From an uncultured Bacilli bacterium (GTDB taxonomy: Bacteria; Bacillota_I; Bacilli_A; RF39; UBA660), in contig CALVYA010000001.1 in assembly GCA_944371905.1 (NCBI GenBank), positions 5,627 to 69,626 on the forward strand: a DNA stretch of 64,000 nucleotides. The letters are read 5' to 3'. How positions within the stretch are numbered: position 1 is the stretch's first letter; each line of letters opens with the position of its first letter. Below are positions 2,944-44,262 of this stretch, in pieces. A program made the position numbers and the translations under genes. A model generated the notes under the pieces. The model was not told the DNA's origin. It searched no databases and saw only the letters and a list, made by a program, of their open reading frames with translations.

Positions 2944-4482
2944 ATGAATAGAACAAAAAAATGGTTTAGAGATTTATTTAAAAGAAGGATGTTTGTTGCG
3001 TTTTTAATATTAATACAGCTTTTTTTAATTATTTATTTTATAATGAGTGGGAGTAGTTCTCTATTAATTAATATTTTGTTAAAATTAATAAGTATATTAG
3101 TAGCTCTTCATATAGTAGCCAAAAAAGATAAAAGTGCATATAAATTAACGTGGGTATTTTTGATATTATTGTTTCCAGTATTTGGAGGATTATTTTATTT
3201 ATTATTTAAATTTCAATCATCTACTAGAATATTTTCTAAAAAAATAGATGTAGTTGATGAACAGTCAAAGGAATTGTTTTTACTTCCTAATAATAATTAT
3301 GAAAAGGCTAGTAAAGCTCTTAAAGATTTTGTTCCTTTAATTAGTTATTTGCAAAATTTTTCTAATTTTCCAGTATATGAACATACTAAACCTACTTTTC
3401 TTGCCTCTGGTGAAAAGATGTTTGAAGAATTATTAAAAGAATTATCTAAGGCAGAAAAGTATATATTTTTAGAATATTTTATTATTCAAGAAGGATTAAT
3501 GTGGAATAGTATTTTAGAAATATTGAAAGAAAAGGTAAAACAAGGAGTCGAAGTTAGAATTATTTATGATGATATGGGATGTTTTCTATTACTCCCTAAT
3601 AATTACAATAAACGACTAGAGAGTTATGGTATAAAATGTGTAGTATTTAATAAATTTAGACCATTTTTAGCGTCTATTCAAAATAATAGAGATCACCGTA
3701 AAATAGCTATTATTGATGGAAAAGTGGCTTTTACTGGAGGAATAAATTTATCAGATGAATATATCAATGTTTATGAAAGATTTGGACATTGGAAAGATGC
3801 AGGAGTGATGATAAAAGGAGAAGCCGCATGGAGTTTTACTATGATGTTTTTACAACAATGGGCTATATGTAAAAGTTCTTATGAAAATTATCTTGATTAT
3901 TATCCTTGGCAAGATAAAAAATGTACTATTCATAGTGATGGATATGTTCAACCATATGCGGATAGTCCTATGGATAAGGAAAATATAGGAGAACATGTTT
4001 ATTTACATATAATTAATAATGCTAAGAAATATATTTATATAAATACTCCTTATTTAATAATAGATGATAGTATGGTTTCTTCCTTAGTGTTAGCAGCTAA
4101 AAGCGGAATAGATGTTAGAATTACAGTACCGTATCGAGCAGATAAAAAGTTAATTCATTTTACAACAAGATCATACTATAGAGATCTAATAAAAGCAGGA
4201 GTTAAAATTTATGAATATTCCAAAGGATTCATTCATTCAAAAAGTTTTATATCTGATGATAAAATAGCGACGATGGGCACTACTAATTTAGATTTTAGAA
4301 GTTTGTATTTACATTTTGAATGTGGTAGTTGTTTATACAATAATGATTGTATTCTTGAAATGAAAGAAGATTTTCTTAAAACGATTGAAGTTTGTAAAGA
4401 AATTACTATCGAAGATTGTAAAGGTAATTTTATTACAAGAATTCTTCAAGATATATGTAGATTATTCGCACCGTTGATGTAA
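2944..4482 (+). CDS. cls: cardiolipin synthase (phospholipase D family)
   Basis: Two N-terminal TM helices and two HKD motifs (HRKIAIIDGKVAFTGGINL and HSKSFISDDKIATMGTTNLD). Length 512 aa, typical of bacterial Cls. Confidence 0.85.
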   Translation: MNRTKKWFRDLFKRRMFVAFLILIQLFLIIYFIMSGSSSLLINILLKLISILVALHIVAKKDKSAYKLTWVFLILLFPVFGGLFYLLFKFQSSTRIFSKKIDVVDEQSKELFLLPNNNYEKASKALKDFVPLISYLQNFSNFPVYEHTKPTFLASGEKMFEELLKELSKAEKYIFLEYFIIQEGLMWNSILEILKEKVKQGVEVRIIYDDMGCFLLLPNNYNKRLESYGIKCVVFNKFRPFLASIQNNRDHRKIAIIDGKVAFTGGINLSDEYINVYERFGHWKDAGVMIKGEAAWSFTMMFLQQWAICKSSYENYLDYYPWQDKKCTIHSDGYVQPYADSPMDKENIGEHVYLHIINNAKKYIYINTPYLIIDDSMVSSLVLAAKSGIDVRITVPYRADKKLIHFTTRSYYRDLIKAGVKIYEYSKGFIHSKSFISDDKIATMGTTNLDFRSLYLHFECGSCLYNNDCILEMKEDFLKTIEVCKEITIEDCKGNFITRILQDICRLFAPLM

Positions 4483-4503: not shown

Positions 4504-6216
4504 ATGTTTAATGTAAACAAAGAAGAAAAAGAAATAATGGAGGAAAAATTTAATAAACCATGGCTCAAATATTATCAAGGAGATTTTGAACATGTAGATT
4601 ATTTTGATGGATCTTTATATGAAAAGATTTTAGATGTTTCAAGTAGGTTTCCTAATAATTATGCTTTAGAGTATTTTGGTAAAAAATATACTTATAAGCA
4701 AATGATAAATGAAATAGATAGAGTATCAATATCTCTTAATAATCTGGGAATTAAAGAAAATGATTATGTAACTATTTGTATGGTAAATTGTCCAGAAGCA
4801 ATTTTTACTTTTTATGCAATTAATAAAATAGGTGCTATTGCTAATATTATTCATCCTCTATCTAGTGAGAATGAAATAAAGCAATATTTAAAAGGGACAA
4901 AATCAACATGCATTTTCATTAGTGATTTTGTATATTATAAGTTAAAAAATATTAAAGTTAAGCAAGTAATTGTGGTTCCTATTGCTAATAGTATGAATAT
5001 GGTAATGAAAACACTTTATAATATTACAACGAAAAAGAAAAATAAAATACATGATTTACAGTCAAATACTATAGTGTGGAAAAAGTTTTTAACTAAAGGT
5101 AATGATAAAAATATTGATACTTTTAAGAAAAGAGAAAAAGATGATGATGCTGTTATTTTATATAGCGGAGGAACAACGGGTAAACCTAAAGGTGTAATTC
5201 TTACTAATCTTTGTTTTAATGCTGTTAGTAAACATTGCGATTTAATGGTTGATAACACTGATCCTGGAAATAGTATTTTATCCTATTTACCTATTTTTCA
5301 TGGATTTGGGTTAGCTATTTGTATTCATACTCCTTTATCTATTGGTATGAAATGTATTTTAATTCCTAAGTTAAATGTAAAGAAAATTAATAAAATTGTG
5401 GAAAAGACTAAACCAAATTTTTTGCCAGTAATTCCTTCTTTATTAGAAGTGATGGTAAAGGATAAAAAGGCTAGTAAAAAAGCTTTAAAAAGTGTTTTAT
5501 GTGTTTTGTCAGGTGGAGATTTTTTAAATATTGATTTAAAAACTAGAGCAGAAAAGTATTTAAAAGAACATGGTGCTAAGGCAGTAATTAGGATTGGATA
5601 TGGATTAACAGAAGTCACGGCTGCAACTTGTGTTAGTTTAGTAGAGAATTATCAAAAAGGTAGTATAGGAATTCCTTTTCCAGATACTTTATATAAAATT
5701 GTAAAAACTAATACTAATATTACGGCAGATATAAATGAAATAGGAGAGATTTGTATATGTGGTCCTACAGTAATGAAGGGGTATTTAAATGATCAAAATG
5801 AGACTTATAAAGCGATAAGAGTGCATGAAGATGGAAAGAAATGGCTTCATACTGGAGATTTGGGTAGAATGGATGAAAATGGAATTTTCTATTTTGAAAC
5901 AAGACTGAAAAGAATGATTATCTCTAATGGATGTAATATTTATCCAAATTACTTAGAAGAAATTTATAACAAGCATCCTCTGATAGAAACTTCAATTGTA
6001 GTGGGAATTCAGGATGATATCAAACAACAAGTGGCAAAAGCAATTATTGTTTTAAAAAAGAATATTAAATTAACCGAAGAAGTAAAAAATAATATTATTG
6101 AATATGCCAAAAAAAATATTGTAAAATATGCTTTACCTAAAGAATATGAATATGTTGATAGTTTACCGAAAACTCCAATCGGAAAAGTAGATTATAAAAA
6201 ATTTGAAAAAAAATAA
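4504..6216 (+). CDS. AMP-dependent synthetase/ligase (acyl-CoA synthetase-like)
   Basis: AMP-binding signature YSGGTTGKPKGV. GYGLTE and DLGRMDENG motifs match the adenylate-forming enzyme family. Confidence 0.8.
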   Translation: MFNVNKEEKEIMEEKFNKPWLKYYQGDFEHVDYFDGSLYEKILDVSSRFPNNYALEYFGKKYTYKQMINEIDRVSISLNNLGIKENDYVTICMVNCPEAIFTFYAINKIGAIANIIHPLSSENEIKQYLKGTKSTCIFISDFVYYKLKNIKVKQVIVVPIANSMNMVMKTLYNITTKKKNKIHDLQSNTIVWKKFLTKGNDKNIDTFKKREKDDDAVILYSGGTTGKPKGVILTNLCFNAVSKHCDLMVDNTDPGNSILSYLPIFHGFGLAICIHTPLSIGMKCILIPKLNVKKINKIVEKTKPNFLPVIPSLLEVMVKDKKASKKALKSVLCVLSGGDFLNIDLKTRAEKYLKEHGAKAVIRIGYGLTEVTAATCVSLVENYQKGSIGIPFPDTLYKIVKTNTNITADINEIGEICICGPTVMKGYLNDQNETYKAIRVHEDGKKWLHTGDLGRMDENGIFYFETRLKRMIISNGCNIYPNYLEEIYNKHPLIETSIVVGIQDDIKQQVAKAIIVLKKNIKLTEEVKNNIIEYAKKNIVKYALPKEYEYVDSLPKTPIGKVDYKKFEKK

Positions 6217-6242
6217 TGATTTATAAGTCATTATTTTTTTTG
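6215..6242 (+). terminator. rho-independent terminator
   Basis: Palindrome aatgatttataagtcatt followed by a T-run. Confidence 0.5.
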
Positions 6243-6282
6243 TTTATATAGTCTATTATTATAGTTAATAATTTTTAATGCT

Positions 6283-7185
<903 letters not shown>

Positions 7186-7200
7186 AAGGATTTATTAAAA

Positions 7201-7232
7201 TAAACTACTGGATTTTCCGGTAGTTTATTATT
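7201..7232 (+). terminator. rho-independent terminator
   Basis: 11-bp stem taaactactgg / ccggtagttta with a weak T-run. Confidence 0.45.
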
Positions 7233-7270
7233 GTATTAATTTTATTGGTGTACATATTCGATTAATACTA

Positions 7271-7279
7271 CATAAATTA
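7271..7279 (+). promoter_or_regulatory. candidate sigma-K-type promoter (AC -35 at 7252..7253, -10 CATAAATTA)
   Basis: AC-N17-CATAAATTA arrangement 24 nt upstream of the ATG. Confidence 0.4.
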
Positions 7280-7302
7280 ATTTTGAAAGGATATGTTATG
7301 AA

Positions 7303-8094
7303 ATGAAAAGTGAAGATTTTAATAATTATTTGAAAAAATATCCAAGATTTTGTTACTTTATACTTCCTCATTTAACGGGTCCAACGGGAGCAATCGGACC
7401 AACAGGACCAACAGGACCAACGGGACCAACCGGAGCAACGGGAGCAATCGGACCAACCGGAGCAACGGGAGCAATTGGACCAACAGGACCAACCGGAGCA
7501 ACGGGAGCAACGGGAGCAATTGGACCAACAGGACCAACCGGAGCAATCGGACCAACAGGACCAATAGGAGCAACAGGACCAACCGGAGCAATTGGACCAA
7601 CAGGACCAACCGGAGCAACGGGAGCAACGGGAGCAATCGGACCAACCGGAGCAACAGGACCAATGGGAACTAGTGCAGTTCCTGAGTCGTTATCAACAGT
7701 AGATATTGCACCACAACCTGGTATTGCTAGTCAGCCATTATCTTTTAATATTAATACTGTAACATCAGGTCAATTGATTACACATGCTACGAATTCTCCT
7801 AATATTATAATTTCAGGTAATGGGATTTATCAAGTATTATTTAATGGAAGCATAGCCCCTTTCTCTAGTACTACTTTACCTGCTTCCATTGTTATTTATT
7901 TAACTACCAATGGTTCTATTAGTAATATAGGAGCTACACAAACGTTTACTTCTATAGAAACAGATACTATTTCTTTTCAGGGGTTAATTAAAATAACAAA
8001 TGCACCAGTTACTTTAAATGTTTTAGTAGAAAATTCTGGTTTTTTATTTAGCAATATTACTCTAACAGTTATTAGATTAGGAAATATTAGTTAA
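7303..8094 (+). CDS. BclA-like collagen-like exosporium glycoprotein, paralogue 2
   Basis: About 33 G-P/A-T and G-A-I triplets (9-bp tandem repeats 7378..7670), then a Thr/Ser/Asn-rich C-terminal beta domain. Tandem with 6313..7185. Confidence 0.75.
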
Positions 8095-32393: not shown

Positions 32394-32491
32394 ATTTTCC
32401 CCCCCTTAGTAAGGTCTTATTATAACAAAATAGAGTATTTTCGTCAATTTGTATAAAAGATGCCTATTTTTATCAATATAAAATAGGAGGG

Positions 32492-42136: not shown

Positions 42137-42256
42137 TCAATTTTATAATATGATGAGTATTGAAAAAGTTATTTTTGGTTAAAAATATTATTCTCTGTCA
42201 AGCAAGATGTAAAGAGAGAGATCCTTTAAAAATTATATTGAAAATTATCTGGTTGA

Positions 42257-42268
42257 GGGGGGGGGGGG
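42257..42268 (+). repeat. G12 homopolymeric tract immediately 5' of a TATAAT -10 hexamer
   Basis: ggttgaGGGGGGGGGGGGtataatg. An extreme outlier in a genome this AT-rich. Classic contingency-locus architecture. Confidence 0.8.
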
Positions 42269-42342
42269 TATAATGTATATGAGATAAACTAAAGCGGAGT
42301 GATAAAGATGTATAGAAGTAAGAAAATATAAACATAGGAGTT

Positions 42343-43797
42343 ATGTGTGCCTTGGTGCTAGTAATGGTAGTAGTGTATGCTGCATTTATGACCAGATTAA
42401 CAATTAATGGAACAGGTAATATAACAAGTACTTGGAGTATAGAAATAACTTCTATCACTAGTAGTATTACAGGAACAGCTTATAACATAAGTGAACCAAG
42501 TTATAATAGTACCAGTGCTACTTTTAATGCAGGATTAAGAAAGCCAGGAGATAAGATAGAATATAGTATAACCATAAAGAACAGTGGAAGTGTAGATGCC
42601 ATCATCAATGAAGTAAATATTAAAACCACAGGAAGTTATGTAATCATATACACAATAGAAGAAATACAGAATCAAGAAAGATTAACGTCAGGTGCTAGTA
42701 AGACATTTAAAATCATAGTAGAATTTGATAGAGAGGCAACTTCTATACCAAGTGATACAACAAAAGAATTAATCATGGATATTGAGTGTATTCAAGATGA
42801 TGGTCAACAATTAACTCCAAGTGATCCTAATATAGATAATGAAGATACGGGAAAACCAACATTAGTAAATGCAATATTAAAGAATAATCAAGCCCAAAGT
42901 GATGAGAATATAAATTTTATTTATACAAGTGAACAAGATGGAACGAAAGGATTATATTATACAAATACTAATACAGAAGACAACAAAACAACATATTACT
43001 TTAGAGGAGCAGTAGAGAATAACTATGTGAGCTTTGCAGGATTTTATTGGAGAATCATAAGAATCAATGAAGATGGAACAGTCAGATTAATCTATCAAGG
43101 AACAACACCAACAGCAACTGGAAACGAAGCAACAATAGGTAGTAGTGAATTTAACACTAACTCTCATGACAATGCGTATGTGGGATATATGTATGGAACA
43201 CCAGGAAGTAGCACATACGAAGAAACACACTCCAATATTAATAATAGTACCGTAAAAGGAGTAGTAGATACGTGGTATAAAAATAATTTGTTGAATAATT
43301 ATTCAGCTTATATAGCAGACTCAGGGGTTTGTGGAGATCGAAGTTTATTTACAGGAACAGGAGTTGGTGCTACTAATGAAACATCATATGGCCCATATAA
43401 GAGATTAAATGCAGGTACGGGTGATCGGGAGCCACAATTTTCCTGTCCACAAAGTAATGATTTATATACAACTTCTAGTAGCAATAAAGGAAATAAAGCA
43501 TTAGATTATCCAATAGGATTAATAACAGCGGATGAAGTAGCATATGCTGGTGGAAGTGCAAATTCTGAAAACAATAGCAATTATTTAAATTCCAGTGTTG
43601 GTTGGACCATGTCACCATATGAACTTCATTGGGTTCCAGATGAGTATATTGCTGTTAATTTTACGGAATTAACTACTAATAATGTGCATAACAGTGCTGG
43701 AATTAGGCCAGTCATCAATCTGAAATCAACTGTAGAAATAACTAGCGGAGACGGAACCAGTTCTAATCTATACGTAATTAAAACCGCAAATTTTTAG
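42343..43797 (+). CDS. TasA/camelysin (peptidase M73)-like N-terminal domain protein with large C-terminal extension; N-terminal signal peptide apparently disrupted by a frameshift
   Basis: VYA|AF junction and FNAGLRKPGDKIEYSITIKNSGSVDAIINEV resemble the TasA/CalY mature N-terminus (TWA|AF ...NLKPGDKLTKDFQFENNGSLAIKEV). The 6-aa ORF MYRSKKI at 42308..42331 in another frame would complete a SipW-type signal peptide. Confidence 0.5.
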   Translation: MCALVLVMVVVYAAFMTRLTINGTGNITSTWSIEITSITSSITGTAYNISEPSYNSTSATFNAGLRKPGDKIEYSITIKNSGSVDAIINEVNIKTTGSYVIIYTIEEIQNQERLTSGASKTFKIIVEFDREATSIPSDTTKELIMDIECIQDDGQQLTPSDPNIDNEDTGKPTLVNAILKNNQAQSDENINFIYTSEQDGTKGLYYTNTNTEDNKTTYYFRGAVENNYVSFAGFYWRIIRINEDGTVRLIYQGTTPTATGNEATIGSSEFNTNSHDNAYVGYMYGTPGSSTYEETHSNINNSTVKGVVDTWYKNNLLNNYSAYIADSGVCGDRSLFTGTGVGATNETSYGPYKRLNAGTGDREPQFSCPQSNDLYTTSSSNKGNKALDYPIGLITADEVAYAGGSANSENNSNYLNSSVGWTMSPYELHWVPDEYIAVNFTELTTNNVHNSAGIRPVINLKSTVEITSGDGTSSNLYVIKTANF

Positions 43798-44262
43798 ACT
43801 AAATTCCGTTTTTTAACGAAATTTTTTCTTTTTCATATTAATTACCGTTTTTATAACGATAAACGGAAATAAACTTGATAAAAATTCTAATTTTAACGAA
43901 TAATTATATAAATTATTCCACGACAAAAATACGGAGGTTATTTCCGTTTTTCAAACTTATTGCCGTTTTTTAAATATTACTAGAATAGTAAAGAGTTTAA
44001 AAACTGCATTTATCTATTGATAACAAACAAAGATGGACTTTGTTTGTGTTACTTATTATAATCAATGAAATTTAAAAATCAAGGGTTTTATAAACTCATT
44101 TCATTCGCCCTTGATTTTACATTTCATTATACTATAATCAGACTTATTGCCGTTTTTTTAATAAAGCGGAATTCCAAATGAAAATTAACGATACGTAATT
44201 AAAACTAATTAAAAGAGTAGTAATTACTCTTTTTTTTTGTTATAATTTTAAAAGGTGGTATT
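43798..44262. repeat. 465-bp non-coding region with at least five direct copies of ATTNCCGTTTTT and two strong hairpins
   Basis: Motif copies at about 43802, 43841, 43940, 43961 and 44146, plus an inverted copy at 43857. Hairpin acaaacaaag-atgga-ctttgtttgt near 44021..44050. Stem aatcaaggg / cccttgatt with a 24-nt loop at about 44077. Confidence 0.5.

Follow-up and report, generated by a model that had tools for sequence, protein, structure and literature searches.

Repeat-driven phase variation is textbook biology in Neisseria, Haemophilus, Helicobacter, Treponema, and Mycoplasma, and the phase variation known from gut commensals proceeds mostly by DNA inversion. Here we describe a hypermutable run of G residues upstream of a gene for a predicted exported protein, in a 64,000-nucleotide (nt) stretch of DNA from an uncultured Bacilli bacterium (contig CALVYA010000001.1, positions 5,627 to 69,626; the whole stretch is called the window below). 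Among the closest described systems, poly-G and poly-C promoter tracts control porA (poly-G) and opc (poly-C) in N. meningitidis and tp0126 and tprE/G/J/L (poly-G) in T. pallidum (PMC7864442). Poly-A is present in every vlp promoter of Mycoplasma hyorhinis, and TA repeats lie in the promoter spacer of vmm in M. mycoides (PMC10502178). At the Pil1 locus of S. gallolyticus, changes in a repeat make a leader peptide longer, which lets ribosomes melt a premature terminator (Danne et al. 2014, PMC3894217). The window locus shares with the porA, opc, tp0126, and tpr systems a G or C homopolymer of ~7-14 nt in the putative promoter of a gene whose product is exported or surface-located.

The tract, G12 at 42257-42268, lies immediately 5' of a TATAAT hexamer, as read from the window sequence, and the locus runs TTGAAA, ATTATCTGGTTGA, G12, TATAAT, 21 nt, GGAG, 8 nt, and the ATG at 42308. 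The features of the promoter region and the gene are the following.

42238..42243, + strand: TTGAAA, a -35-like hexamer, from sequence; paralogs have TTGAAA, TTGCCA, or TTGCAA in the equivalent place
42244..42256, + strand: ATTATCTGGTTGA, the constant 13-nt part of the putative spacer, unchanged in all strains of the window locus
42257..42268, + strand: G12 homopolymer, the hypermutable part of the putative spacer, from sequence; length differs among assemblies
42269..42274, + strand: TATAAT, the putative -10 hexamer; first base 39 nt 5' of the ATG at 42308
42296..42299, + strand: GGAG, ribosome-binding site 8 nt 5' of the ATG at 42308, from sequence; paralogs keep cGGAGtga
42308..42331, + strand: original gene start, now a seven-codon stub, MYRSKKI, with its stop codon at 42329-42331, by comparison with intact homologs
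42323..42326, + strand: A4 run, site of a 1-nt deletion; A5 in the intact ortholog, A4 in seven of eight full-length alleles
42343..43797, + strand: gene body of 484 amino acids, in a frame open from 42322, with the remnant of an H-region and cleavage site, an Ig-like beta-sandwich, and a DUF6273-type C-terminal domain

An earlier, sequence-only reading of this DNA had placed and described the G12 tract and the open reading frame (ORF) correctly, and its view of the tract as an extreme compositional outlier holds up. The window is 27.4% GC, its second-longest G run is 5 nt and its longest C run 7 nt, so that no other G run in the 64 kb exceeds 5; from composition, about 4e-5 G runs of at least 12 nt would be expected in 64 kb, and one, G12, is observed. 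The same reading had drawn attention to the GGTTGA next to the tract. The TTGA that touches the tract was rejected as a -35 element, as it would leave a spacer of only 10 nt, and the -35-like hexamer conserved among paralogs is the TTGAAA at 42238-42243. The constant part of the spacer measures 13 nt at the window locus versus 8-12 nt in paralogs.

Further assemblies of the window locus, from several projects, were found by exact look-up of the flanking VanY and aminotransferase proteins. Five tract lengths occur in nine independent assemblies, with identical flanking intergenic DNA: G7 in L002, L005, L008, and L011, G8 in L001, G12 in the window and L003, G13 in L006, and G14 in L012. Full-length alleles of the lineage that carries the A4 run differ by zero or one single-nucleotide polymorphism (SNP) across the 1.44-kb gene. 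Because five lengths are found between identical flanks, with 0-1 SNP per gene, the tract mutates far faster than ordinary sites; it is hypermutable. Comparison of orthologous loci, suggested by the sequence-only reading, thus gives a hypervariable tract, G7-G14, between near-identical strains. Two other tract loci differ at the tract alone, the P0082 locus with G10 or G11 and the P0092 locus with G11 or G12. As a tract-free negative control, three paralogs without an intact tract had upstream regions that were identical across two to eight assemblies each.

The association extends across a protein family. In 585 kb fetched around homologs in other uncultured gut Bacilli (17% G), there are 23 G or C runs of at least 7 nt, all of them G on the strand of the family gene and just 5' of family genes; 21 of these are G10-12, against an expectation of 0.012. 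Seventeen tracts adjoin a -10-like hexamer (TATAAT in 16 and TATAGT, preceded by TGG, in L045) and lie 5' of full-length family genes, beginning 45-62 nt ahead of the start codon. A typical family promoter reads cTTGCCAAATCCCTA-G10/11-TATAAT-(~30 nt)-GGAG-ATG, or TTGCCAAATCCCTA-Gn-TATAAT; that of L106/L107 is clearly homologous to the window promoter. Where TATAAT or GATAAT is recognisable in family promoters, the first base of the -10 lies 35-42 nt, mostly 38-40 nt, from the start codon. A scan of metagenomes for GGGGGGGGGGTATAAA returned 120 unrelated contigs, none with a family gene.

Paralogs without a tract have spacers of 17 nt (five cases) or 18 nt (four), and those with an intact tract 19 nt (13 cases), 18 nt (five), 20 nt (two), or 17 nt (one). 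In a further set the tract is interrupted (GGGAGGAGGGG, G4TG4A, G5AG5, G5TG6, and G7TGG; L106:~2410-2470, L021:~2290-2340, L033:~3935-3965, L035:~3890-3910, and L111:~2440-2465), and the spacer is mostly 18 nt, with 19 and 20 nt in two of them, 20 nt belonging to G5TG6. These interrupted tracts look like evolutionarily "locked" versions of a switch. A near-constant distance from TATAAT to the start codon, a TTGNNN on the 5' side, and tract-free spacers of 17-18 nt are comparative geometry that supports a place for the tract in the spacer between -35 and -10. The proposal of a promoter tract whose length governs the distance between these two elements thereby gains support from position and from the geometry of the paralogs; both the promoter assignment and the dependence of transcription on tract length are what we infer from these sequences. 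At L109:~2440-2470, an allele of the P0082 locus compared with L108 and L056, a G10 tract is followed by a hexamer that has lost the T of TATAAT; read as GATAAT it gives a 17-nt spacer. Either a genuine ON-type state or a misassembled tract end could account for this allele.

Taken together, the hypermutability, the tract-free control, the family-wide association, and the spacer geometry argue for slippage in a promoter spacer. We consider it likely that G12 forms the hypermutable segment between the -35 and -10 elements of a sigma-70-type promoter, one member of a family-wide slippage switch of which the window copy appears to be out of service. In such a switch, slipped-strand mispairing at replication would lengthen or shorten the G tract, and tract length would reset the distance between -35 and -10, so that each paralog would move between stronger and weaker transcription. 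At about six such promoters per genome, a population would come to have mixed surface-protein repertoires. Selection would keep the tract in many paralogs, and interruption would lock it in others.

Several observations weigh against this interpretation. Tract lengths were compared between samples, so that the differences are differences among assemblies, and poly-G lengths in short-read assemblies may err by about one base; the hints of mixed lengths within one population are contigs that terminate inside or beside the tract. Most intact-tract paralogs stand at 19 nt and not at 17; either the population majority is in an OFF or low state, or the -35 assignment is wrong by a base or two. In the other paralogs the narrow spread, G10-11, could also reflect a sequence-specific role of the tract. 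At the window locus itself, no allele has a spacer of 16-18 nt, hence no observed state is predicted to be ON, and a promoter scan of the locus found no canonical promoter with a 16-18-nt spacer when the tract is G12.

The gene downstream has a broken beginning. The stub reads ATG TAT AGA AGT AAG AAA ATA TAA, in a frame different from that of the 484-amino-acid ORF. The best database match, P0001 (494 amino acids, 99% identical to the window protein), starts MYRSKKNIIIGVMCALVLVMVVVYAAF, and more distant intact homologs start MYRNKKNIIIGV. P0001 is encoded on a contig of a metagenome-assembled genome (MAG; GCA_944372315.1) that is syntenic with the window, with a VanY carboxypeptidase on the 5' side and a class-V aminotransferase and thioredoxin on the 3' side. 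Aligned with the window, its intergenic region shows two length differences only, G8 versus G12 and A5 versus A4 (42323-42326); therefore one A has been lost in the window. Adding back one A yields MYRSKKNINIGVMCALV, with a normal n-region, h-region, and VYA/A signal. The N-terminus of P0001 and the A5/A4 alignment bear out the suggestion that a frameshift splits the coding region of the signal peptide. Of the two repairs that had been put forward, the 1-nt insertion is the one seen in relatives, as an added A; the 2-nt deletion is not the repair found there.

All seven near-identical full-length alleles have A4, and A5 occurs in L001 alone. L001 represents a lineage of its own: its gene has at least six further substitutions (five of six change an amino acid) and lacks the 3' insertion described below. 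Because A5 is confined to this divergent allele, the frameshift is best read as one fixed event on one branch and not as a second switch. In L012 the protein seems to be disrupted once more, into 155 and 338 amino acids, but this split was rejected as a scaffold gap of N's.

Two features lie at the 3' end.

43785..44205, no strand: 421-bp insertion with a direct repeat of 15 bp, ATACGTAATTAAAAC, at its flanks (43770-43784 and 44191-44205)
44213..44238, + strand: hairpin AAGAGTA-GTAAT-TACTCTT followed by T9, the probable original terminator, from sequence; directly after the stop codon in L001

The insertion exchanges the last two codons of the gene, so that the end ..YVIKTN becomes ..YVIKTANF. 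It is missing in L001 and identical in all ten loci fetched from the A4 lineage (nine distinct contigs). It contains five or six copies of TTATTNCCGTTTTT, a sequence nearly absent from the rest of the window, and at 44023-44047 a perfect 10-bp hairpin. It matched no Rfam family, plasmid, or phage, and neither the window nor the loci fetched by then had another copy of it; it is possibly a small mobile or iteron-like element. The hairpin at 44213-44238 now stands 421 bp away from the stop codon. It probably served as the original terminator of the gene, judging from its sequence; the terminator scan gave no call for it, as G-C pairs are too scarce in its stem.

Both alleles carry substitutions where the family is invariant or nearly so, F341V (about 43325) and P488L in the window lineage and R30G, G35R, T389I, and T434I in L001; the two alleles thus differ by six non-synonymous changes and one third-position change. 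The substitutions in both alleles suggest that constraint on this gene copy is relaxed throughout the species. The spacer is 25 nt at G12 and 20-27 nt over all alleles seen, and 17-18 nt would need G4-5. From spacer length, frameshift, 3' insertion, and substitutions, the window copy appears to be silenced or decaying. Because the spacer is 20-27 nt, the A5-to-A4 deletion is fixed in the lineage, and the 421-bp insertion is in place, tract length at this locus is probably subject to drift, in a gene that is silenced or in decay.

These data also bear on other explanations of the tract. It might be a fixed cis-element, bound by a regulator specific to the family or acting through DNA structure beside the -10, with length differences that are neutral noise. 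The tight lengths over paralogs and species (G10 in 11 cases, G11 in nine), the conserved left flank (AATCCCTA), and spacers of mostly 19 nt instead of the canonical 17 all fit such an element. However, lengths range from 7 to 14 at the window locus and differ, 9 versus 11, at the P0121 locus with identical flanks; paralogs that have lost the tract keep the spacing (17-18 nt) rather than the G's; and uninterrupted G10-12 in DNA of 28% GC is expected where mutability itself is under selection. We regard a fixed element as quite unlikely. That the G12 tract, the frameshift, or both are sequencing or assembly errors is scarcely credible. Poly-G is a recognised weak point of Illumina chemistry, and contigs do break at or near the tract (that of L004 terminates inside it and that of L003 18 nt past it), but a tract in the homologous position recurs in independent projects (BRZ, ONAT22, Hadza, Lapin, goat, and Logan), G7 is repeated in four assemblies and A4 in seven full-length assemblies, and an A run of 4 or 5 nt is not error-prone.

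The broken reading frame can likewise be read otherwise. The sequence-only reading had proposed the A-rich stretch as a second slippage switch, and the indel does fall in a homopolymer and exactly breaks or restores the signal peptide. A second, reversible translational switch at the A4/A5 run, giving a locus with two slippage switches, is nevertheless highly improbable: A runs of 4-5 nt are far shorter than the lengths that slip at high frequency, and among close relatives no recurrent or reversible indels of the coding run were seen, with A4 everywhere covered except in the L001 lineage, whose further substitutions and lack of the 3' insertion point to a single event on a single branch. Rescue of the A4 allele by programmed -1 frameshifting or transcriptional slippage was rejected from the sequence, which has no slippery heptamer and too short a run. 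The frameshifted allele could still be functional if translation restarted at the ATG at 42343 or the TTG at 42352, giving a hydrophobic N-terminus without a basic n-region. All A4 assemblies keep the 484-codon frame open, gene callers give 481 amino acids, and an AGGAG at 42336-42340 lies just 5' of both codons. Its spacing, 2 nt to the ATG and 11 nt to the TTG, however speaks against a restart, and the open frame tells little in A4 strains that are near-clonal. Moreover, a basic n-region opens every intact homolog inspected at the N-terminus (MYRNKK, MEEKYMKSKK, MTKKK...), and a restarted product would also face the 20-27-nt spacer and the disrupted 3' end. We judge such a restart unlikely. 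The reading that we prefer for the window copy remains that of a family-wide promoter-spacer switch that has fallen out of service here.

At seven loci, whose family genes have other N-terminal domains, the tract is used differently (L059:3239-3410; L069:3208-3473; L072:3215-3479, the same locus as L236 and L237; L083:2484-2651; L087:~213-408; L092:~3219-3485; and L238:1240-1501). Here a G10-11 tract is not beside a promoter element. It lies inside a leader ORF of 17-23 codons (for example MVKNTNVRLFVRGGGYKLLPR, followed by a stop codon), which has its own promoter and ribosome-binding site and is followed by a strong hairpin with a T-run and then by the family gene. When tract lengths were simulated, two length classes stopped the leader 3-25 nt past the tract and the third left it open into or beyond the terminator, at seven of seven loci; in shuffled sequences this pattern of leader and terminator arises by chance with a frequency of 0.08-0.13 per locus, for a criterion chosen post hoc. 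At one locus of this subgroup the tract is G9 or G11, depending on the sample. By analogy, the arrangement resembles the attenuation switch of S. gallolyticus Pil1, with a homopolymer as the repeat: in both, a promoter and a ribosome-binding site precede a short leader ORF that bears the repeat, then a hairpin terminator and the gene. The repeat differs, G10-11 coding for Gly-Gly-Gly versus a GCAGA pentanucleotide in Pil1, as does the target, a single family gene versus a pilus operon. The likeness does not extend to the window gene, whose locus has no leader ORF or hairpin of this kind; a leader ORF running through the window tract was rejected, as it would have neither a ribosome-binding site nor an ATG, and no hairpin separates the tract from the gene.

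The family is very large, with more than 7,700 matches above threshold of 8,000 candidates scored. In a scan of species-representative genomes, its hosts were uncultured gut "Bacilli" MAGs, Mycoplasma sp. CAG:776, an "uncultured Tenericutes" MAG, and Candidatus (Ca.) Ventrenecus, with a dozen or more family paralogs per genome. Sample labels include Hadza (human), goat, "Lapin", and "BRZ", and members also come from ONAT22 metagenomes. Genes beside family members include those for CotZ and SpoVIF, from which it follows that the hosts form spores; host genes also include VanY.

In structure models, the C-terminal domain rose from a predicted local distance difference test (pLDDT) score of 50 with an alignment of 22 sequences to 89 with 104 sequences. 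The model of this domain matches the fold of a T. ramosa IgA peptidase structure (9qa6; aligned portion of 9qa6 not specified). In that peptidase, ThomasA, the N-terminal domain is DUF6273 (PF19789) and is dispensable for IgA cleavage (PMC12402451). The window protein itself falls below the Pfam threshold for DUF6273, which some of its paralogs exceed. The C-terminal portion, described from sequence as a novel extension of ~350 amino acids, turned out to be a conserved, family-defining domain common to thousands of proteins. The least conserved stretch of the family, P0001 residues ~436-465, and a second variable segment, residues ~346-375 (about 43610-43700 and 43340-43430 in the window), lie within the DUF6273-type domain and have a mean top-residue frequency of 0.40-0.58 versus 0.65-0.89 elsewhere (family alignment A3). 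Their sequence variation suggests that these two segments form a diversifying surface patch. On the model, the predicted product is exported, joins an Ig-like to a DUF6273-type domain, has a variable patch and a signal or anchor helix, and is plausibly a binding protein.

A TasA-like or camelysin-like identity, as the sequence-only reading had it, found no support on comparison. The window ORF gave no match to PF12389 (Peptidase_M73), and P0001 scored 15.0 bits against a cut-off of 22.5 (E=0.022); the NCBIfam TasA profile (NF046066) gave 14.6 bits against a cut-off of 450. A profile search of Protein Data Bank sequences yielded no TasA match, and no TasA or camelysin structure was among the matches listed from a fold search with the protein model. 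A motif test of the window only, and a crude one, found no SGSMxP motif of a SipW-type signal peptidase in any frame of the 64 kb. The family does share with TasA and camelysin a basic n-region, a hydrophobic helix, a ...YA/AF... junction, and then a KPGD-containing beta-sandwich, together with the two faint sub-threshold profile matches; unlike them, the family protein is about twice as long and has the large DUF6273-type domain.

Elsewhere in the window, a C7 run at 32399-32405 is the second-longest G or C homopolymer. The block 6001-8000 has 38% GC, a GC skew near zero, and three G5 runs, whereas the remainder of the window is 23-31% GC; it is probably a ribosomal RNA gene or another structural RNA gene.

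The class of switch proposed here is well known, and the protein family is one without a prior description that we found: a search of open-access papers returned no description of the family or its tracts. A broader picture, which we hold tentatively and at slightly less than even confidence, is that Mollicutes-related spore-forming gut Bacilli practice Vlp-like combinatorial surface variation through this undescribed family, which has a dozen or more paralogs in each genome, with G10-12 tracts wired into promoter-spacer and Pil1-like switches and with interrupted tracts as locked forms. The use of one tract in two switch designs across the family is the most interesting lead. If true, these would be conserved poly-G switches in an exported-protein family of abundant uncultured gut Bacilli, present in human and animal metagenomes, and would produce stochastic, heritable surface heterogeneity, possibly for evasion of IgA or phages. 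G10-12 followed by TATAAT offers a simple sequence signature for locating such loci, and tract lengths can be read in existing metagenomic reads, so that the idea is testable without cultivation. For annotation, genes of this family call for caution, as many are given a wrong start or are split, and the tracts are places where contigs break.

Set beside the described systems, the tract differs from those of porA and the tpr genes in its host, a low-GC (27-29%) spore-forming member of the uncultured gut Bacilli and not a Gram-negative or spirochaete pathogen, in adjoining the -10 directly, in the unrelated protein family that it precedes, and in the lack of a permissive spacing among the window alleles. 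In the porA, opc, tp0126, and tpr systems length varies between and within isolates; here the variation is between assemblies. As in porA and tp0126, where the tract lies between -35 and -10 and acts through their spacing, we propose that it does so here, and as in the tpr genes, several members of a paralogous family carry tracts. Compared with vlp and vmm, the repeat is of G and not of A or TA, the products have signal or anchor helices and not lipoboxes, and the hosts have sporulation and cell-wall genes (CotZ, SpoVIF, and VanY). The vlp and vmm hosts are nevertheless phylogenetic neighbours of those described here, several family MAGs being labelled Mycoplasma sp. CAG:776 or Tenericutes, and the organization is alike: a multigene family of variable surface proteins with a slippery repeat in each promoter and, as proposed here, combinatorial ON/OFF expression.

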